A stretch of 7,046 nt of DNA from a virus (lineage: Duplodnaviria; Heunggongvirae; Uroviricota; Caudoviricetes): the IMG/VR virus record IMGVR_UViG_2563366883_000009; one strand, 5' to 3'. Positions 1-7,046 of the stretch are shown one piece after another (position 1 is the first letter of the stretch; each line of letters starts with the position of its first letter). The notes under the pieces are model-generated. The model searched no databases, was not told the DNA's origin, and saw nothing but the letters and a program-made list of their open reading frames with translations. A program made the position numbers and the translations under genes.

Positions 1-1230
1 ATGAGCAGAGCACTTAACAAACTGAGCGATACACAGCTGAGGAAAATCAACGGCACACCCGCCCAAAAAACAGCCTTTCTTAATGACGGTGGAAACCTGA
101 GCGTCAGGCATTCAACCAGCGGCCTTTTAACCTGGTATTTCACCTACAGGGCCGGAACGGGAAGGGGAGCACGACCGGAACGGATTAAGCTGGGAAATTA
201 TCCTGATCTGAGTCTGAAAGCTGCCAGGGAAAAAGCGGCACAGTGTCGCGCTTGGCTTGCTGAGGGGAAAAATCCACGTCATGAGATGAATTACACCGTA
301 CAGAAAGCGTTAAAGCCCGTAACGGTTGGCGATGCGCTTACCTACTGGCTTGAGTCTTACGTAAAGGAAAACCGCGTGGATTATGCCGCCCTGAAAAAGC
401 GCCTTAATAATCACGTAATACAGCACATTGGTGCTATGCCGCTGGATAAATGCGAGCTACGGCACTGGCTGGCCTGTTTTGACCAGGTGGCAAAGCGAAC
501 GCCTGTTACTGCCGGATTCTTGCTACAGACGTGCAAACAGGCGCTTAAGTTCTGCCGGAGGCGGCGCTATGCAATCAGCAACGTTCTTGATGATATGAGT
601 GTGGCGGACGTTGGGAAAAAACCGGATATAAGCGAGCGTGTCTTAAGCACCAAAGAACTTGGCGAATTATTGCAGGCACTGGACAAAAAAATATTTTCCC
701 CTTACTACGTCGCACTAATCCGCCTCCTGATTGTTTTTGGATGCCGGACGGTAGAACTGAGGTTATCGGAGATCAGCGAGTGGGATTTTACCGAAATGCT
801 CTGGACCGTGCCGAAAGAACACAGCAAAACGAAGGTGGCAATATTCCGGCCCATACCGGAAGCAATACTGCCGTTCGTCACGCAGCTGGTGGAGCAGAAC
901 AGGCACACGGGCTTATTGCTGGGGGAAGTGAAACAGGAAACAAGCGTGTCGCAGTACGGCAGATTAGCGCACAGGAGGCTAAAACACCCTCACTGGTCAC
1001 TGCATGACATCCGGCGCACCTTTACAACGATGCTGAACGATTTAGGCGTGGATCCTCACGTCGTGGAGCAGCTTACAGGTCATCAGATGCCAGGGATGCA
1101 ACGAGTCTATAACCATTCCCGTTATCTGGATGCGAAACGTGACGCGCTGGATATGTGGACGGAGCGGTTAGGGATACTGGCGGGAACACATGAAAACGTA
1201 ACCACATTGCCAATAGCCAGAGAAATATAA
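1..1230 (+). CDS. int: Tyrosine-type site-specific recombinase, P4/CP4-57-like integrase (409 aa)
   Basis: Complete ORF starting at window position 1. N-terminus (KLSDTQLRK...GGNLSVRHSTSGLLTWYFTYR) resembles the arm-binding domain of P4-type integrases. C-terminal catalytic signature is present: GCRTVELRLSEI (Arg I), HWSLHDIRRTF (His-x-x-Arg), LTGHQMPGMQRVYNHSRY (catalytic Tyr region). Upstream RBS cannot be seen because the gene begins at base 1. Confidence 0.95.
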   Translation: MSRALNKLSDTQLRKINGTPAQKTAFLNDGGNLSVRHSTSGLLTWYFTYRAGTGRGARPERIKLGNYPDLSLKAAREKAAQCRAWLAEGKNPRHEMNYTVQKALKPVTVGDALTYWLESYVKENRVDYAALKKRLNNHVIQHIGAMPLDKCELRHWLACFDQVAKRTPVTAGFLLQTCKQALKFCRRRRYAISNVLDDMSVADVGKKPDISERVLSTKELGELLQALDKKIFSPYYVALIRLLIVFGCRTVELRLSEISEWDFTEMLWTVPKEHSKTKVAIFRPIPEAILPFVTQLVEQNRHTGLLLGEVKQETSVSQYGRLAHRRLKHPHWSLHDIRRTFTTMLNDLGVDPHVVEQLTGHQMPGMQRVYNHSRYLDAKRDALDMWTERLGILAGTHENVTTLPIAREI

Positions 1231-1595: not shown

Positions 1596-1784
1596 GTGTT
1601 AAGCACAGATCGCTTTATACGTGAAAAAGAATGTCAGCAACTTACAGGCCTGAGCCGCTCATGTCGGTACCGCCTGGAAAAAGCCGGACAATTCCCATCA
1701 CGGCGTAAGCTGGGCGGTCGTTCCGTTGGCTGGTCTTTATCCGAAGTTCTGGCATGGAAGGACAGCTGCGAGGCAGTTCACTAA
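1596..1784 (+). CDS. alpA: AlpA-family phage regulatory protein (small HTH transcriptional regulator/excisionase-like, 62 aa)
   Basis: GTG start at 1596 preceded by GGGGG (1587-1591). Protein carries the AlpA-family signature LTGLSRS..YRL.KAG.FP...KLGGRSVGW...EV.AW. Position directly after int is typical for this family. Confidence 0.88.
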   Translation: MLSTDRFIREKECQQLTGLSRSCRYRLEKAGQFPSRRKLGGRSVGWSLSEVLAWKDSCEAVH

Positions 1785-1836: not shown

Positions 1837-3114
1837 ATGAATACTGGATATTCTCCCGAACAAGGGCGGGGCTTCGTTCGTCCTGAAAAACAGAATCTGC
1901 AAAATTTTGCCGAAATTATTCCGGTTATTTCCGGCCTTACTGGCGGGAGTGAAACCAATATTGTTAACGCCAGAGCGTTGCAGATGTTTGATGATAAAAA
2001 GGGAGTAAATTTAACTTACACCCCTGACGGCAATCAGAATATGAGCATTATCTCTGAGTCAGGTTTCTACAAACTAATAAAAACAAAAAGCGCCCCGTTG
2101 CCGGAGCGCCTTTGTGAACAATTAACCTACTGCGCAAAAAATGAATCTGAGCAGTGGGATTATATCAACCATGTGGAGAAGCGCCACAATTGCCGAATAA
2201 CGGGCAAAACAAAGGCCACCCGCTACGGTGGCCCCTCGACACAAGCTACACGTTATCCCCAACGCATGAGCATTGCCAACAATGCCACATTTGCGGCTGG
2301 TGGGCAATGCAATCAGTCTGGTTCAGTTCGTTGCCATACCTGCAATGAGCGCTTTTCCCTGTACTCTTTAAGGAATTGCTCAAGGGCAAAAGCACATGGC
2401 GCGAATCTTTCTGATTCATGCTCTATCTTTCTGCGCCGTCTTTTCCGTGCCGGTGATAATGTTTTGGTCAATTCTTTATCGGTCATTGTGTTGTCCTGCA
2501 TAGCAATGCGCCGTAGTTACTCACACCACGGCGCTGGTGATGGTTACTCCTGCTCTTTGGCCTTGCGACGCTGGCGGCGTTTGATCTCACCTTTAACGGC
2601 AGTAACTATAAATTGCGCCTTGCTTTCACCTTCATCTAAATTTTTTTCTAAGTCTGCAACAACATCATGCGGGAATCTGGCATTTAACTGTTGCGACTTA
2701 TTATTTGTTGAACCTGTTGCCATTACTGAATCCTCTCTAAGTTGGTGCGATTCAGTATACACAAAAAAAATTTCAGAGAAAGACTTGAAGTGCGATTCAC
2801 TTACTGATAGGTTAAAAACGAATGGTGCGATGCACCAAACAACAACGCCCCGCAGTGGTGGCACACATGCAGGGCGTCTAACCACCAACGATAGCGAAAG
2901 TATCGAGGTAGCTATGAGAAATCATACCATACACCCGCAAGGGCGGGACTCGCACAACCTGAATAAATACATCTGGCGTTTTATCGCCCTGAGCACGGCA
3001 CAACCGCGCGTGATTACCATTGAGGCCACCAGCGAACAGGAAGCACGCCAGCAATCTCCGGCTGGCTGCGTGATGGTATTTGCTGCCCGTATTCGTCAGG
3101 GGGTAGGCTTATGA
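1837..3114 (+). CDS. Longest open frame (425 aa); probably not one genuine gene. The 5' ~380 nt looks coding-like (weak Bro-N/antirepressor-like stretch NMSIISESGFYKLIKTKSAPL), the middle is antisense to a better-supported minus-strand gene, and the 3' 200 nt is probably the separate small gene 2914-3114
   Basis: No in-frame stop from 1837 to 3114 and no Shine-Dalgarno before the 1837 ATG. First-codon-position composition is purine-rich (coding-like) in 1837-2220 but T-rich (about 44 percent T by hand count) in 2521-2760. The translated middle section is Cys/Ser-rich. Confidence 0.3.
   Translation: MNTGYSPEQGRGFVRPEKQNLQNFAEIIPVISGLTGGSETNIVNARALQMFDDKKGVNLTYTPDGNQNMSIISESGFYKLIKTKSAPLPERLCEQLTYCAKNESEQWDYINHVEKRHNCRITGKTKATRYGGPSTQATRYPQRMSIANNATFAAGGQCNQSGSVRCHTCNERFSLYSLRNCSRAKAHGANLSDSCSIFLRRLFRAGDNVLVNSLSVIVLSCIAMRRSYSHHGAGDGYSCSLALRRWRRLISPLTAVTINCALLSPSSKFFSKSATTSCGNLAFNCCDLLFVEPVAITESSLSWCDSVYTKKISEKDLKCDSLTDRLKTNGAMHQTTTPRSGGTHAGRLTTNDSESIEVAMRNHTIHPQGRDSHNLNKYIWRFIALSTAQPRVITIEATSEQEARQQSPAGCVMVFAARIRQGVGL
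2201..2233 (-). terminator. Candidate rho-independent terminator for the minus-strand module
   Basis: Perfect hairpin GGCCACC-cgctac-GGTGGCC (2214-2233), followed on the minus strand by TTTGTTTTG (complement of plus 2205-2213); lies about 80 nt past the stop of the minus-strand ORF ending at 2313. Confidence 0.45.
2313..2486 (-). CDS. Hypothetical small basic protein (57 aa, MTDKELTKTLSPARKRRRRK...), possible second gene of the minus-strand operon
   Basis: ATG at 2486 preceded by AGGA with 5-nt spacing; the ORF track starts 5 codons earlier at 2501 without an SD. Codon statistics are equivocal and there are several rare Arg codons. Confidence 0.3.
   Translation of the reverse strand: MTDKELTKTLSPARKRRRRKIEHESERFAPCAFALEQFLKEYREKRSLQVWQRTEPD
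2544..2723 (-). CDS. Arc/Mnt-like ribbon-helix-helix DNA-binding protein (59 aa); putative repressor
   Basis: Internal ATG at 2723 of the 2544-2888 minus ORF, preceded by GAGAGGA about 8 nt upstream. Protein LNARFPHDVVADLEKNLDEGESKAQFIVTAVKGEI aligns by eye with the P22 Arc pattern FNLRWPREVLDLVRKVAEENGRSVNSEIYQRV (beta-strand, helix A, G-x-S turn, helix B). First-codon-position composition is G>A>C>T, as in real genes, by hand count. Confidence 0.7.
   Translation of the reverse strand: MATGSTNNKSQQLNARFPHDVVADLEKNLDEGESKAQFIVTAVKGEIKRRQRRKAKEQE
2724..2913. promoter_or_regulatory. Divergent AT-rich control region with three direct repeats GTGCGAT(T/G)CA (2745-2754, 2790-2799, 2825-2834) and a TATACT -10-like element for the minus-strand gene (plus coordinates 2754-2759)
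   Basis: Repeats read directly; copy 1 overlaps the candidate -10/start region of the RHH gene. An inverted pair TGAATC (2727-2732) / GATTCA (2749-2754) flanks the RHH RBS. The -35 assignments are weak. Confidence 0.5.
2914..3114 (+). CDS. Hypothetical small protein (66 aa); likely first gene of the plus-strand operon (alternative model to the 425-aa ORF)
   Basis: ATG at 2914 preceded by GAGGT (2905-2909); coding-like first-position composition (T about 12 percent) and high GC3; stop overlaps the next start in ATGA at 3111-3114. Confidence 0.5.
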   Translation: MRNHTIHPQGRDSHNLNKYIWRFIALSTAQPRVITIEATSEQEARQQSPAGCVMVFAARIRQGVGL

Positions 3115-3341
3115 GCCAGGAAATCACACTACAACAGGCAGCAGAACGCGCCCACCAAATCGAAGTTATTTGCGCACTGGCAGAGGATTACCCTGGCATG
3201 ATGACCGACAGCGAATCAGGGGCAATCATCGGCTTACTTAAACGCCTTAGCGGTGAGGTCTGCGTATTCCTGAGCGATGAACAGGAAAGAAGAACGCTTA
3301 TTTCTAACGAAAAAAAATGCGGAGGGGTACATGTGCAATAA
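3111..3341 (+). CDS. Hypothetical small protein (76 aa)
   Basis: ATG at 3111 overlapping the upstream stop (ATGA); GGGGGTAGG RBS at 3096-3104; protein-like composition. Confidence 0.6.
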   Translation: MSQEITLQQAAERAHQIEVICALAEDYPGMMTDSESGAIIGLLKRLSGEVCVFLSDEQERRTLISNEKKCGGVHVQ

Positions 3342-3555
3342 AACCACACCGGACGCAGCCGCCGCCGCGCTCACTACGCTGATGCACGCGCTTATTGATA
3401 TTTCTGTTATTGCTGACAGGGCGCATAAACACGCAGCCAGAGAATCAGAATGCATCTTCCATTATTTAACATTTGTGCAGCTAAAAGCCGATCAGGCACT
3501 GGATAAGGCCGGAAAAATTATCATGGCTGATGTGCAGGAGGTGCACCATGCATAA
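3331..3555 (+). CDS. Hypothetical small protein (74 aa from the internal start; the ORF track gives 3277)
   Basis: ATG at 3331 has a GGAGGGG RBS (3321-3327) and only an 11-nt overlap with the upstream gene; the 3277 ATG lacks a good SD and would overlap by 65 nt. Confidence 0.5.
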   Translation: MCNKTTPDAAAAALTTLMHALIDISVIADRAHKHAARESECIFHYLTFVQLKADQALDKAGKIIMADVQEVHHA

Positions 3556-3913
3556 CCTGTCAATTTCTGACCTTAACAGCATTCAGTTTGACGAGAAATT
3601 TACCGGGCAGTTGCTGGTCAATGTGGAGAACGGGCGCATAGTGCGTAATTATCACCTGCCGGATGGTGCAATTGCCGGAAGCGTTGAAGCATTGCTGGAA
3701 CTGGCGGAACGTGCGCGACTGATTAAGCCGTCAACGAGCCATCACGATGATGATCTGCATTTTACCGGATGTATGGTGAGTCACTACGAAAACGGCGTCG
3801 AGGTATCCTGCGAACGGCTGCGTGATGATTGCTGTTTCGGCACACTGCCGGAATTTATCGAGTTGCTGACCAGTTGCGGTTATCAGGTCATTCAGGGGGG
3901 TAAACATGCGTGA
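3548..3913 (+). CDS. Hypothetical protein (121 aa from the internal start; the ORF track gives 3530)
   Basis: ATG at 3548 preceded by a perfect AGGAGG (3536-3541) with 6-nt spacing; overlaps the upstream stop by 8 nt. Confidence 0.65.
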   Translation: MHNLSISDLNSIQFDEKFTGQLLVNVENGRIVRNYHLPDGAIAGSVEALLELAERARLIKPSTSHHDDDLHFTGCMVSHYENGVEVSCERLRDDCCFGTLPEFIELLTSCGYQVIQGGKHA

Positions 3914-4127
3914 TGATCGTTTTAATTCCCTGAAACAGGAATTTTCCGGCGTTCCTGATGATGCGGCTGATGCGCTTTCGTCAATGCCAGAGCTTATTAG
4001 AGCGGATTTTTTCTTACTTTCCACGAGAGAATATAAATCAACGGGGCTTGATGTACTGAATATCGTCGCCGATTATGCTGATTTCGTGACAGAGGTTATT
4101 TTAAGAAAAACGACGGACGGGGATTAA
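3906..4127 (+). CDS. Hypothetical small acidic protein (73 aa)
   Basis: ATG at 3906 with GGGGGG RBS (3895-3900); overlaps the upstream stop in ATGCGTGA. Confidence 0.6.
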   Translation: MRDDRFNSLKQEFSGVPDDAADALSSMPELIRADFFLLSTREYKSTGLDVLNIVADYADFVTEVILRKTTDGD

Positions 4128-4128
4128 T

Positions 4129-4362
4129 ATGCGTGATATTTACCTTGAAACAATAGACCGCGCATTTCTTGCACTTTCTCACAGTGAAAGCATGATGGAA
4201 ATATTACGCATATGGCTTGAAACACTTGGCGACAATGAACGCAACAAACAAAAATCAAGAATTGCCACGGCATTAATAACGCTTCTTGAGCCTGTAATAA
4301 TGGAACTGCAAGAAATAGATCTATTGCACGATATATATAAAGAACAGCACACCGGAGAATAA
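4129..4362 (+). CDS. Hypothetical small protein (77 aa)
   Basis: ATG at 4129 one base after the upstream TAA; GGGGA RBS at 4119-4123. Confidence 0.6.
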   Translation: MRDIYLETIDRAFLALSHSESMMEILRIWLETLGDNERNKQKSRIATALITLLEPVIMELQEIDLLHDIYKEQHTGE

Positions 4363-4367
4363 AAATA

Positions 4368-4667
4368 ATGAAACTTAAATATTCTGGCTTAACTGCCAGT
4401 GGCAACACTCACCCTAAATTTACGCGCGGTGATATTTACCGCGACCAGTACGGCGGCACGGTAATGATTAAGGGCGTGGAAGAACGGCGCGTAACCTACC
4501 GCCGTGAAGGTTACGAATATGATTGCGTGATGCCTGTTTATCAGTTCCGGCGTGATTTTTCTCTGGTACAGACCGCGCCGCATAACGTGCCCACCAGCAA
4601 CGCCAGGGCACGGGCAAACATCCAGAAGCTGAAAACCATGATTAACGGATTCAGGGGCAAGAAATGA
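4368..4667 (+). CDS. Hypothetical protein (99 aa)
   Basis: ATG at 4368 with GGAG (4354-4357); stop overlaps the helicase start in ATGA at 4664-4667. Confidence 0.6.
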   Translation: MKLKYSGLTASGNTHPKFTRGDIYRDQYGGTVMIKGVEERRVTYRREGYEYDCVMPVYQFRRDFSLVQTAPHNVPTSNARARANIQKLKTMINGFRGKK

Positions 4668-6064
4668 AAAGCGCACCGAACTTAAAAAAACAGCCTTACG
4701 ACAAGATGACCGAAGTCATTATTTTTGCGGGTAGTGATGCCTGGGCACATGCGAAACAGTGGCAGGAACAGGACGGGCGACTGGCTGGCGATAATGTGCC
4801 TCCCGTTGTGCTGGCTGATGATCAACTGGATGAACTGGCAGACCTGAGAATCATCGACGAGGGGCGCTATTGTGTCCGGCTGTACAAGGCAGGCCACATC
4901 AGGCCATCAAATATTAATGCCATTGCGCACAAGCTGGCGGCGGCGGGTGTAACTGATGCGAATTATTACCCCGAAGGGATGCACAGCCATATGCGGGAGA
5001 ACTGGCGCGAATACCTGGAACGGGTGCGCGGGAAAGAGCCGGCGGAAGAAAAAAACCACCAGCGAAAAACCACGCTACCGATGAGCGTTGGATCTACCGG
5101 ATACGACACGCAACTGGATTACGTGGTTAAGGGGATTATTCCGGCGGTATCGCTATGCAGCATATACGGGGCTAGCGGGTCCTATAAATCATTCCTTGCC
5201 GGATCGTGGGCGTGCCATGTTGCCACTGGTCGCCAGTGGGGAGGCCGCAGGGTTGCACATGGTGCGGTTCTCTATGTGGTTGGTGAAGGCGGTATAGGTG
5301 TTCCGCGTCGTGTAAAAGCCTGGGAGGTTGTGCACGATGAGCAGGTGAAAAATCTGTATCTGGTAAACCGCCCCATCTTTCCGGCTGCCCCGCTTGATGT
5401 TGATGAAATGGTTATCGCTGCCCGTCAGGTGGAGCGGGAAACGGGTAAACCTGTACGCATGATTATTCTGGATACGCTGGCGCGTTGCTTTGGTGGGAAT
5501 GATGAAAATGATTCCCGTGATATGGGGGCGTTTATCCGTGGTTGTGACGAACTGAAACGACGCACAGGGGCCACGGTGCTGGTGGTTCACCATTCCGGCA
5601 AGGATGAGACGAAAGGCGCGCGCGGTTCCAGTGCATTTCGTGCTTCGCTGGATGCTGAATACCGGATACGCAGGGAGGACGCAGGAAGCGAAGCGCTGGT
5701 TATCTCATGCACCAAAATGAAGGACGCGGAGGAACTCAAAGAAGCCGCATATGACTTACGCGTGGTGGAGCTTTTTACCGACGCTGACGGTGAATTAATC
5801 ACGTCGCTGGTGGTGGTGGATGATCCGCGCCCTCCTGTTGAACTGGAGCGCATCGAGGAGGCAGGGAACAAGACGGAAAACCATACCGCGCTATGGGGGT
5901 GCATCCGTTCACGCACACAGAACGGCGACAAGTGCACGATCCCGCTGTTACGTGATGACATGAAAAAGCTGGGGTATGAAATGAAAAACTTCCGGCGCTG
6001 GCTGTACAAGCTGGAAAAAGATGGGGTTATTCGTATCGATGGGGATGATGTAGCGCCGCTATAA
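4664..6064 (+). CDS. Replication protein: RepA/DnaB-like (AAA_25-type) helicase ATPase with an N-terminal toprim-like region (466 aa); satellite/PICI-type primase-helicase module
   Basis: P-loop-like IYGASGSYKSFLAGSWACHVATG, Walker B-like MIILDTLARCFGG and the VLVVHHSGKDETKGARGSSA motif typical of RepA-like helicases. The N-terminal TEVIIFAGSD...VVLADDQLDE stretch is toprim-like by eye only. Translationally coupled to the upstream gene. Confidence 0.9.
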   Translation: MKSAPNLKKQPYDKMTEVIIFAGSDAWAHAKQWQEQDGRLAGDNVPPVVLADDQLDELADLRIIDEGRYCVRLYKAGHIRPSNINAIAHKLAAAGVTDANYYPEGMHSHMRENWREYLERVRGKEPAEEKNHQRKTTLPMSVGSTGYDTQLDYVVKGIIPAVSLCSIYGASGSYKSFLAGSWACHVATGRQWGGRRVAHGAVLYVVGEGGIGVPRRVKAWEVVHDEQVKNLYLVNRPIFPAAPLDVDEMVIAARQVERETGKPVRMIILDTLARCFGGNDENDSRDMGAFIRGCDELKRRTGATVLVVHHSGKDETKGARGSSAFRASLDAEYRIRREDAGSEALVISCTKMKDAEELKEAAYDLRVVELFTDADGELITSLVVVDDPRPPVELERIEEAGNKTENHTALWGCIRSRTQNGDKCTIPLLRDDMKKLGYEMKNFRRWLYKLEKDGVIRIDGDDVAPL

Positions 6065-6255
6065 AAGTGAGGAGCAAAAGCGAGGTGGATAGAAAGAGGG
6101 CCAAAATTAGCCTGCTCTCCCTCACTTTTCTACCTGTATACATCCTCAAAAGTGAGGGGTAAAAAAATACTTATGAAACACACACATAGAAAAACCAAAA
6201 ATCCCAATTGCGACGAAGTGAGACGCTTGAAAAAGTGAGGCGAAAAAGTGAGAGG
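6063..6255. repeat. Iteron-like array of AAAAGTGAGG: perfect copies at 6063-6072, 6148-6157, 6231-6240 and inverted at 6119-6128; degenerate copies at 6077-6086, 6214-6223, 6244-6253; with an A/T-rich spacer at 6160-6205. Candidate replication origin
   Basis: Read directly from sequence, starting at the helicase stop codon. In SaPI-type elements the ori with iterons sits immediately 3' of the rep gene. Confidence 0.55.
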
Positions 6256-6827: not shown

Positions 6828-7046
6828 ATGACAGCACAAATTGCAGCTTACGGGCGGCTGGTGGAGACAGACAAGGAACGGCATCACATCACGATGCGAC
6901 GGCTGGAATGTTCCAGGAAGGCACAGAGGCCACCGGAGCCGCCGGATAATTACGGAGACCTGAAAAAGGCGGTCGATCGCACTTATGCCGAAATGGGTAT
7001 GGATGGTGCTGGTGATGAAATATGGCGAAATTACCAGGACAGATAA
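6828..7046 (+). CDS. Hypothetical small protein (72 aa), complete; stop is the last codon of the window
   Basis: ATG at 6828 preceded by GAGGTGG (6817-6823); protein-like composition. Confidence 0.6.
   Translation: MTAQIAAYGRLVETDKERHHITMRRLECSRKAQRPPEPPDNYGDLKKAVDRTYAEMGMDGAGDEIWRNYQDR

Follow-up and report, generated by a model that had tools for sequence, protein, structure and literature searches.

Kil of P4 and Icd of P1 arrest host cell division, and in the immI region of P22 the ribbon-helix-helix (RHH) repressors encoded by mnt and arc control Pant. The left operon of P4 (vis, eta/kil, epsilon, orf151, orf106, alpha) has at its 5' end vis, the homologue of alpA, followed by a long frame, eta, which runs without interruption from where vis stops to where kil ends and whose final ~65 codons encode a Kil/Icd-family protein, then by small ORFs with overlapping junctions and, in last position, by the replicase gene; the nesting of kil in eta, the coupling to the alpA homologue and a promoter inside the long frame have been described (PMC10111431). 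The immI region of P1 comprises c4 RNA, icd and ant1/ant2, and in P1 as in P4 the translation of icd or kil matters as such for downstream expression (P1 annotation; PMC10111431). PICIs, for their part, require AlpA for induction (PMC6092414; 10.1101/2022.09.08.507074), and those of E. coli have iteron origins located after rep (PMC6092414). One of the genes found in these islands, rgdR, encodes a regulator of LEE type III secretion and of motility that has been the subject of experiments, the phenotypes published for RgdR/DUF4222 proteins being LEE, motility and Congo-red only (PMC3378721).

The window, namely the whole stretch of 7,046 nucleotides analysed here (IMG/VR record IMGVR_UViG_2563366883_000009; table 1), is part of a capsid-forming PICI of the EcCIEDL933/CP-933C/O-island 51 family of E. 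coli, on which a literature exists (10.1101/2022.09.08.507074; PMC6092414; PMC3378721). Islands lying between roxA and phoQ match it over its whole length at 96-97% identity and encode capsid, protease, portal, HNH, TerS and TerL, and its integrase shares 100% identity with one that PGAP annotates adjoining roxA in one locus. The preliminary description had called the element an int-alpA-rep satellite, correctly; AlpA matches P4 ORF88 at E 7e-15 (phmmer). The gene order is that of EcCIEDL933 (identical to CP-933C and O-island 51) and EcCICFT073, with int, alpA, an Icd-like gene and small ORFs, next rgdR overlapping the replicase gene, an iteron origin, ssb and perC, and then the capsid module.

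Table 1. Features of the window and their coordinates.
Feature	Position	Strand	Remarks
Tyrosine integrase	1..1230	+	409-aa ORF; left island end
alpA (PICI activator, P4 Vis/ORF88 homologue)	1596..1784	+	Pfam Phage_AlpA, E 3e-18
eta-like long open frame	1837..3114	+	425 codons; starts 52 nt past alpA, ends with O1
Intrinsic terminator of leftward RHH-m62 unit	2086..2113	-	12-bp stem, then T-run
m62 (phrog_21027)	2313..2501	-	62-aa basic protein; second gene of leftward unit
YlcI/YnfO-family Arc-like RHH protein	2544..2723	-	NF041551, E 1.5e-17
opL (GGTGCGATTCAGT), putative operator	2744..2756		Overlaps leftward promoter, -10 TATACT at 2759..2754
Predicted sigma-70-type promoter of the seven-ORF operon	2785..2813	+	Read from sequence
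opR1 (AGTGCGATTCACT), putative operator	2789..2801		Within promoter spacer
opR2 (TGGTGCGATGCACCA), putative operator	2823..2837		Perfect palindrome directly 3' of -10
G+C-rich hairpin, 5' leader	2846..2876		Conserved; followed by TCTAACCACCAACG
O1, Kil/Icd-family protein	2914..3114	+	66 aa, pI 10.7; nested at 3' end of long frame
O2 (phrog_1478)	3111..3341	+	76 aa, acidic; optional cassette
O3 (phrog_5146)	3331..3555	+	74 aa, near-neutral; N-half of 154-aa fusion in relatives
O4 (phrog_340)	3548..3913	+	121 aa, acidic; optional cassette inserted between O3 and O5
O5 (phrog_24341)	3906..4127	+	73 aa, acidic; C-half of 154-aa fusion in relatives
O6 (phrog_2196)	4129..4362	+	77 aa, acidic, helical; almost always directly 5' of O7
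O7, RgdR homologue	4368..4667	+	99 aa, pI 10.2; Pfam DUF4222, E 1.6e-24
rep, RepA-type helicase replicase (AAA_25)	4664..6064	+	
Replication origin	6065..6252		Six AAGTGAG/CTCACTT iterons

Upstream of rep, seven small ORFs of the + strand (ORF1 to ORF7, here O1-O7) tile positions 2914-4667 and run into the RepA-type replicase, each of them where the preliminary description had placed it. The junctions that it listed are there as well (ATGA at 3111 and 4664, ATGCGTGA at 3906, TAA-n-ATG at 4129), and to these can be added overlaps of 11 nt between O2 and O3 and of 8 nt between O3 and O4, and a gap of 5 nt between O6 and O7; most of the ORFs had been credited with good Shine-Dalgarno sequences, and a G-rich one lies 4-9 nt upstream of every start. 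The ORFs stand beyond chance because PGAP (NCBI) calls the identical seven-gene set in E. coli islands sharing 96-99.7% identity with the window, because they are unbroken in 79 related loci, because each incoming cassette keeps the geometry of its junctions (-4 into O2, -11 into O3, -8 into O4, -8 or +1 into O5, +5 from O6 to O7 and -4 from O7 to rep), with stop/start overlaps retained in all architectures seen, and because median dN/dS, with the window as reference, stays under 1 for every ORF that allows the measurement: 0.23 for O1 and O7, 0.35 for O3, 0.42 for O6, 0.58 for O5 and 0.69 for O2 (only 3-4 informative pairs for O2 and O3), compared with 0.15 for rep and 0.14 for int. O4 has too few alleles for such an estimate; O2, O3 and O4 are supported by diverged homologues with intact ORFs. 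O1-O7 are genuine genes, conserved as ORFs in related elements, and form the operon feeding the replicase that had been proposed, a tightly packed single unit which is probably translationally coupled.

No domain had previously been recognised in any of the seven, which holds for O2-O6, none of which matches Pfam or NCBIfam, but not for O1 and O7; nor can all seven be assigned to structural or replication families. Against NCBIfam NF033153 (cut-off 25) O1 scores 69.9 bits, P4 Kil scoring 76.1, the Sakai homologue 64.7 and P1 Icd 52.6 bits, and BLASTP aligns O1 with P1 Icd at E 2e-6; by profile and alignment, O1 is a member of the curated family common to P4 Kil and P1 Icd. The long frame at the end of which it is nested runs antisense over two minus-strand genes, m62 and ylcI, the latter being the Arc-like RHH gene; related loci keep this frame open, and it is so in 29/29 ylcI and 25/25 m62 DNA alleles; among 39 distinct alpA-O1 spans, the O1 frame has at most one stop in 20, the other + frames having 11-28 stops.

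With an alpA/Vis homologue at the 5' end, a long frame closed by a Kil/Icd-family protein and carrying a predicted internal promoter, then small ORFs with overlapping junctions and the replicase last, this operon is by its layout the PICI counterpart of the P4 left operon. The analogy is architectural except for alpA/Vis and O1/Kil, since O2-O7 do not resemble epsilon, orf151 or orf106 of P4 and no CI/C4-type immunity RNA is detectable in the window: where P4 has CI RNA, the window has the antisense, divergent gene of an Arc-like RHH protein with predicted protein operators. The replicases differ too, a RepA-type helicase in the window as against the alpha primase-helicase of P4. With P1 immI the window shares a gene, O1 being homologous to Icd; in each case it opens an operon under immunity control and is translationally coupled to what follows by an overlap of ATGA type. 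P1, however, is controlled by antisense C4 RNA, undetectable in the window, and downstream it has an antirepressor gene rather than small ORFs and a replicase.

The predicted promoter of the operon has a -35 TTGAAG (2785-2790) and a -10 TAGGTT (2808-2813) separated by a 17-nt spacer, and this layout of -35, operator and -10 is shared by the distinct spacer versions inspected (out of 34). The putative operators are three, of GTG-N5-CAC type, and their cores, more than 11 in number, co-vary with the RHH allele while tracking neither the O1 nor the alpA allele, a signal to which the physical linkage of RHH gene and operator sites contributes. This covariation, which is the basis of the proposal, suggests that the Arc-like RHH protein is a previously undescribed repressor of the operon; the Sakai island has its own RHH gene and operators. 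As in P22 immI, a small Arc-like RHH protein is encoded divergently from an early operon with genes of anti-host or anti-repressor type, and its putative operators lie within the promoter of that operon. The similarity to P22 Arc, which is the best match of the RHH allele profile in PDB, is marginal (E 0.019), and DNA binding by the window protein is predicted; unlike P22, the window has three putative operators, of a type with more than 11 specificities, and an RHH gene lying antisense within a long open frame. The companion protein m62 is 100% identical in amino acids in most related loci, its minus frame giving the best BLOSUM score in 253/300 allele pairs, and the leader hairpin recurs at an unchanged position in 15 distinct leaders, whose stem sequences differ.

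At the other end of the operon, O7 is the positional homologue of RgdR (ECs1581) of O157 Sakai, with which it shares 81% identity, a length of 99 aa, R20-G21-D22, K35, an invariant core (residues 21-68) and the slot, which is identical between the window and E. coli PICIs/cf-PICIs; the published RgdR phenotypes are those of ECs1581. A low-confidence model of O7 finds its best fold matches among SH3-like barrels. The stop of O7 overlaps the rep start and the position is identical before three replicase types, residues 1-122 of rep being common to DUF927-type and primase-type PICI replicases; iterons vary with replicase type, and the six copies of the window are confined to the origin. Uninduced cells deleted for rgdR show a phenotype (PMC3378721), so at least O7 must be expressed without induction and a simple model of a fully repressed operon is insufficient. 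The sequence at 4273-4301 is a candidate internal promoter, without conservation in Sakai.

This leaves the middle ORFs, O2-O6, small proteins that are exchanged as cassettes between islands, the full set occurring in 8 of the 79 loci. O4 carries an internal partial duplication and has single-unit forms of 73-91 aa. Could all or some of them be defence or anti-defence cargo in a variable slot, directed against host immunity or competing phages and acting outside the satellite's own life cycle? Their cassette-like presence or absence, the rapid swapping between islands, the small acidic nature typical of protein inhibitors, a relaxed dN/dS of 0.4-0.7 and the restriction of O3-O6 to satellites (none of the four has a match in 50,697 phage genomes) would agree with such a role. 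Yet PADLOC returns no hit, in keeping with the earlier statement that no known defence or anti-defence signature could be recognised, and O4, the one middle ORF searched against PDB, resembles no solved structure (its AlphaFold model is poor, pLDDT 55, and the fold search found no match). The genes lie, moreover, inside a coupled early operon with conserved overlaps, not in an accessory slot with its own promoter, and O3, O5 and O6 are each found in almost all members of the family, unlike typical defence cargo, so that we consider this role unlikely. That some of the small ORFs, O2 and O5 above all, are non-functional, either translated spacers serving only to hand ribosomes down the operon or decaying genes, appears very unlikely. 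Their dN/dS values are the highest (0.69 and 0.58) and mark weak constraint, O2 and O4 are frequently missing, frameshifted or fused versions exist, and the effect of icd/kil translation per se in P1 and P4 offers a parallel; but O5 and O6 have dN/dS below 1 across many alleles, homologues at 30-60% identity retain length and frame, there is a separate PHROG family match for every ORF (E 1e-28 to 1e-45), and O2 has homologues, at 38-41% identity, in unrelated temperate phages, namely in the early-left operons of Fels-1 and Klebsiella phages.

Unlikely, in our judgement, is that O2-O7 are replication accessory factors (helicase loader, origin-remodelling protein, primase partner) serving the downstream replicase. 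In favour are their probable co-transcription and coupling with rep, the invariable overlap of O7 with the start of the replicase gene, the conserved block that O7 forms with rep residues 1-122 across the three replicase types, and a DUF4222 ORF located directly 5' of the replication genes of a temperate phage of Klebsiella. The same O2-O6 combinations, however, accompany RepA-helicase, DUF927 and primase-type replicases with differing iterons, showing no link to replicase type, and therefore lack specificity for a single replicase or origin; many islands do without O2 and O4, the phage homologues of O2 lie in recombination or early-left regions rather than beside replication genes, and the transcriptional phenotypes of RgdR are unrelated to replication (PMC3378721).

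The best explanation overall, which we regard as likely, is that O1-O7 are the promoter-proximal genes of the early (replication) operon in the PICI, with a P4-like layout. Its transcription would be driven from the sigma-70 promoter at 2785-2813 and silenced by the divergent Arc-like RHH protein through the three allele-specific operators; a helper phage would induce AlpA, on which related islands depend according to published work, and so turn the operon on; most likely, as in P4, read-through from alpA would override the repression while ribosomes translate the eta-like frame. Ribosomes would then move from gene to gene along the operon, with O1 arresting host division in the manner of Kil/Icd. 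Small acidic early proteins usually bind host or phage proteins, and O2-O6 may bind those of the host or of the helper phage, O3 and O5 perhaps acting as one unit. O7, as a putative basic small beta-barrel with weak non-specific DNA binding, might act with the replicase or on transcription, in which case the effects on LEE and motility would be a by-product of leaky expression.

Parts of this module are present in 1820 of 5426 complete E. coli genomes, as well as in the published PICIs EcCIEDL933 and EcCICFT073 (PMC6092414). The mosaic differs from island to island: Sakai has before rgdR only an Icd-like gene (53% identity), a 61-aa ORF, an O2-like (51%) and an O6-like gene (29%), with a DUF927 replicase, whereas the window combines the full O2-O6 set with a RepA-type helicase. 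The locus is consequently not unusual, its seven-ORF operon being a mosaic member of a known module.

The plus strand between 2914 and 4667 is tiled by seven small ORFs, O1 to O7, followed directly by the replicase gene rep (table). The preliminary description had recognised this packing correctly: all the junctions it named are found in the sequence, a Shine-Dalgarno element, which it reported for most of the ORFs, is present in G-rich form at every start, and PGAP calls exactly the same seven genes in E. coli islands that are 96-99.7% identical to the window. These ORFs are real genes. Their median dN/dS with respect to the window is 0.23 for O1 and O7, 0.35 for O3, 0.42 for O6, 0.58 for O5 and 0.69 for O2, with few pairs behind the values of O2 and O3 and too few alleles of O4 for a measurement; the comparison genes rep and int give 0.15 and 0.14. 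Judged by these ratios, the middle ORFs are under weaker constraint than those at the ends.

Features of the window, in order of position
Feature	Position	Strand	Remarks
int	1-1230	+	left end, same direction as replication genes
alpA	1596-1784	+	left end, same direction as replication genes
long frame	1837-3114	+	425 codons; opens 52 nt past alpA, ends as O1
strong terminator	2113..2086	-	
m62	2313-2501	-	62-aa basic protein, ARKRRRRK motif, phrog_21027
RHH gene (YlcI/YnfO family)	2723..2544	-	NF041551, E 1.5e-17
three related operator-like sites	2744-2756; 2789-2801; 2823-2837		second site within promoter spacer
leftward -10, TATACT	2759..2754	-	in spacer between RHH gene and O1
putative O1 promoter, sigma-70-type	2785-2790 (-35, TTGAAG); 2808-2813 (-10, TAGGTT)	+	17-nt spacer
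G+C-rich hairpin	2846-2876		O1 leader
O1	2914-3114	+	
O2	3111-3341	+	
O3	3331-3555	+	
O4	3548-3913	+	
O5	3906-4127	+	
O6	4129-4362	+	
O7	4368-4667	+	stop overlaps rep start
rep	4664-6064	+	466 aa, AAA_25 RepA-type helicase
replication origin	6065-6252		all six AAGTGAG/CTCACTT copies of the window, flanking an A+T-rich stretch

The gene order is that of a phage satellite of the PICI class, with int and alpA at the left end, co-directional with the replication genes, and a replicase of its own preceding an iteron origin. In EHEC and EPEC strains, islands located between roxA and phoQ are 96-97% identical across the whole window, and in such loci (L001 and H1-H15) the rep part is followed by ssb, perC and the genes for major capsid, prohead protease, portal, head-closure, HNH, TerS and TerL; the window stops at 7046 within ssb, and this capsid and terminase module is read from the near-identical islands, not from the window. 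Capsid-forming PICIs are islands of about 15 kb that have their own capsid, protease, portal, head-tail, HNH and terminase genes, without tail or lysis genes. By this comparison, the island is a member of the capsid-forming PICI family, the prototype of which is EcCIEDL933 (CP-933C or O-island 51; 10.1101/2022.09.08.507074; PMC6092414; PMC3378721). The prototype, which represents another allele than the window's, is induced by a helper phage via AlpA and transferred with helper tails (10.1101/2022.09.08.507074). The spacer between int and alpA (1231-1595) is rich in short A/C repeats, including gaaacaacg, gacacaacg, gaacaacaagg and ggaacaacgg at about 1262-1316 and acacaa/cccaa runs at about 1515-1565, all possible arm sites of the integrase or sites of AlpA; the sole promoter-like site ahead of alpA lies at 1505-1533.

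The operon itself is ordinary, the standard early module of a satellite family that roughly one in three complete E. coli genomes carries. The block 2890-4670 is present in part in 1820 of 5426 such genomes, only 129 of which cover at least 80% of it; hence the block is mosaic. We compared 80 viral-contig loci, gathered with an alignment of RgdR (the family of O7, see below), plus annotated E. coli loci; a scan of genome contigs with the same alignment gave only E. albertii, owing to over-specific peptide patterns. In general, the genes are arranged as O1, (O2), (short O4), O3, (O4), O5, O6, O7 and replicase, where brackets denote optional genes, and 8 of 79 loci have the complete set of seven. 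Junction offsets go with the incoming cassette, regardless of the preceding gene (-4 into O2, -11 into O3, -8 into O4, -8 or +1 into O5, +5 from O6 to O7 and -4 from O7 to rep), and therefore tight packing and coupling survive recombination.

The two ends of the operon belong to named families, at variance with the earlier view that none of the ORFs contains a recognisable domain. O7 matches the Pfam family PF13973 (DUF4222) with 85.7 bits (cut-off 27, E 1.6e-24) and is 81% identical to rgdR of E. coli O157 Sakai, which in EcCIEDL933 likewise overlaps the start of the replicase gene and thus has the identical slot. It has the features of RgdR, namely a length of 99 aa, the triplet R20-G21-D22, K35 and a position directly upstream of the island replicase; the core (residues 21-68) and the basic C-terminal helix are invariant in 30 homologues. 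An AlphaFold2 model of O7, built upon a shallow alignment, reached a pLDDT of 56, and sequence searches of solved structures with O1 and O7 gave nothing meaningful. RgdR is an activator of LEE1 and a repressor of motility, with weak, non-specific binding to DNA; it has been reported in all analysed E. coli PICIs (PMC3378721; PMC6092414). The effects on LEE1 and motility were obtained with ECs1581 and C1493, in a study in which R20 and K35 mattered (PMC3378721); O7 keeps both residues, and such regulation is for O7 a prediction by analogy with these two proteins.

What O7 accompanies is, however constant its own position, not a single type of replicase: its family precedes three unrelated types, RepA helicase, DUF927 and D5-type primase, which have only their first ~122 residues in common and differ also in their iterons, islands with the other types having TAACCCGCA or CTGTCTACC iterons at the same place. 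Over residues 1-122 (4664-5029), rep shares 56-67% identity with PICI replicases of the DUF927 and D5-primase types at their N-termini; this domain has no Pfam match. As judged from these alignments, rgdR and the N-terminal ~122 residues of rep are a conserved block. A DUF4222 ORF also lies just ahead of the replication genes in a Klebsiella temperate phage, and a link of O7 to replication is plausible. RgdR, known only as a virulence regulator, is a fixed partner of the satellite replicase. The joint between O6 and O7 (4345-4370, CACACCGGAGAATAAAAATAATG) is invariant or nearly so even after an unrelated upstream gene, as in Sakai and two further island loci (L062 and L083), which suggests either a fixed recombination joint or a ribosome-binding cassette for rgdR. 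An internal O7 promoter candidate at 4273-4301 was discarded, since it is not conserved in Sakai, where rgdR is expressed.

At the other end, O1 scores 69.9 bits on the NCBIfam model NF033153, 'host cell division inhibitor Icd-like' (curated cut-off 25), on which P4 Kil, extracted as a 65-codon frame from P4, scores 76.1 bits and P1 Icd, taken from the P1 record, 52.6 bits. Because of this common score, and of a BLASTP match with P1 Icd (E 2e-6), we place O1 in the Kil/Icd family. Its position also fits, as it is the first gene of a coupled operon, overlapping O2 by an ATGA at 3111, with candidate immunity operators and a promoter directly upstream. Both P1 Icd (P1 record annotation) and P4 Kil (PMC10111431) inhibit host division or kill when expressed; this family property is predicted for O1 by analogy.

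The kil gene of P4 lies nested in the 3' end of eta, a frame that begins at the stop codon of vis (the homologue of alpA) and whose translation prevents premature termination (PMC10111431). This arrangement recurs in the window, where a long open frame starts near alpA and ends as the Kil-family O1. Among 39 distinct spans between alpA and O1, the O1 frame has at most one stop in 20, while the other plus frames there have 11-28; in most of the remaining spans another plus frame is nearly free of stops and ends just before O1, for example in Sakai. Two minus-strand genes lie opposite this frame, the RHH gene and m62, forming a leftward unit that ends at the strong terminator. The minus frame has the highest BLOSUM score in 370 of 406 pairs of RHH alleles and in 253 of 300 pairs of m62 alleles, so it is the minus-strand proteins that are better conserved. 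Yet the plus frame has no stops in any of the 29 RHH and 25 m62 DNA alleles; since its chance of staying open under random synonymous codons, with the proteins fixed, is ~0.43 for an RHH allele and ~0.67 for an m62 allele, its openness looks selected. On these patterns, the long frame may be an eta-like read-through frame over two real antisense genes. Most related islands have an m62 protein of 100% identity, although identity of the neighbouring RHH protein ranges from 37 to 100%; a role of m62 as regulator or toxin partner is conceivable. PGAP annotates the long frame inconsistently, as a 305-aa 'Icd-like' protein, as pseudogene fragments or, in Sakai, as a 247-aa hypothetical protein. Its start (1837 to about 1990) seems to be all that the window keeps of an AntA/AntB-type antirepressor: the first ~40 codons correspond to the N-terminus of the antirepressor that follows alpA elsewhere, and there is a weak Bro-N signal (E 0.048). 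One such protein from other islands (P0173, 196 aa) joins a Pfam AntA domain to a C-terminus like that of O4. Together, O1 and the long frame link E. coli PICIs to the well-studied eta/kil switch of P4.

The cassettes between these ends, O2 to O6, have no match in Pfam, NCBIfam or PADLOC, and each of them matches a PHROG of unknown function. O2, O4, O5 and O6 are acidic (pI 4.3-5.1) and O1 and O7 basic. Fels-1 and Klebsiella temperate phages have homologues of O2, 38-41% identical, in their early-left operons; O3, O4, O5 and O6 have no match among 50,697 phage records. O3 and O5 are fused in a single 154-aa protein in about 17 loci and therefore probably act together; in the window they are separated by an inserted O4. 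The O4 protein consists of a unit of ~83 aa with an internal partial duplication, in which residues ~62-96 repeat the beta-hairpin segment of residues ~18-45 (FTGxxV..ENG..V); single-unit forms of 73-91 aa are present in databases and, having their breakpoints between the two repeats, look like products of unequal crossover. The AlphaFold2 model of O4 (pLDDT 55, shallow alignment) has no fold match, and its sequence, the only one of O2-O6 searched against those of solved structures, gave nothing meaningful. Paralogy of O3 and O4, raised by shared matches to phrog_2512, was rejected: their BLASTP E value is 0.18 and phrog_2512 is the family of the O3-O5 fusion. The cassettes are unlinked to replicase type, which argues against replicase-specific accessory roles. 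A literature search returned no studies of these small ORFs; O3 to O6 constitute a compact, satellite-specific candidate set for interaction with helper phage or host.

Searches against P4 with phmmer and tblastn match only int, alpA/Vis and, weakly, Kil. None of epsilon, orf151, orf106 and the alpha primase-helicase has a homologue here, and the first three show no similarity that would make them counterparts of O2-O7, the GEIYR/GDIYR resemblance between orf151 and RgdR being only apparent. The P4 genes sid, delta and psu are absent from the window, and near-identical islands have an HK97-type capsid module in their place. Unlike P4-like satellites with their CI/C4-type leader RNA, the whole window has no Rfam match at E<=1 to this or any other known RNA. 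O1-O7, rep, m62 and the RHH protein have no match in PADLOC-DB 2.0 (E<=1), in line with the earlier failure to see any defence or anti-defence signature, and no defence function is indicated for the locus. The preliminary interpretation hence stands in this respect and gives way at both ends of the operon: we see here one mosaic version of a known and very common module, the end genes of which belong to two named families.

In regulatory terms, the gene that could control this module is the RHH gene. A profile of its alleles finds the Arc repressor of P22 as top match in the PDB, aligned over its full length with a marginal E value of 0.019; the protein has no Pfam RHH match, its sequence retrieved nothing meaningful from solved structures, and we found no literature report of a function for the YlcI/YnfO family. 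The 190-nt spacer between this gene and O1 contains divergent promoter elements and three related operator-like sites. Their layout is constant over 34 versions of the spacer, while the site cores vary with the RHH allele, 22 RHH proteins going with at least 11 cores, most of which fit GTG-N5-CAC; the cores do not track the alleles of O1 or alpA. In EcCIEDL933 of Sakai (L002), the minus strand carries a separate RHH gene, for a 63-aa protein that PGAP leaves unannotated, with its own GTGGTCAC sites following TTGACA, and the gene of the conserved 62-aa protein (5077..4886 and 4843..4655 of L002); opposite them RefSeq annotates a 247-aa plus-strand hypothetical protein (4443-5186). A repressor and its operators would be expected to covary in this way, and the pattern is a sign that E. 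coli PICIs encode an allele-specific repressor so far undescribed. In 15 distinct O1 leaders the hairpin occupies the same place, always with TCTAACC after it; its stems differ by what look like compensatory changes. Having its T-rich tract on the minus-strand side, it may terminate leftward transcripts or stabilise rightward mRNA. No antisense partner of the leader is found elsewhere in the window at the 9-mer level.

The master repressor of Gram-negative PICIs has been reported as unclear (PMC6092414). Taking these sequence patterns together, we tentatively propose, as possible rather than probable, that an Arc-like RHH protein of 57-65 aa with at least 11 'immunity' specificities is this repressor, acting via the operators at the operon promoter. 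It would be encoded, with the 62-aa protein as its partner, antisense to a selected eta-like frame, so that AlpA-driven transcription and translation across the RHH gene and m62 would flip the switch, with O3 to O6 as undescribed effectors directed at helper or host. If this is true, the RHH-operator module would be the repressor missing from the induction model of Gram-negative PICIs, and would explain specificity groups among co-resident islands.
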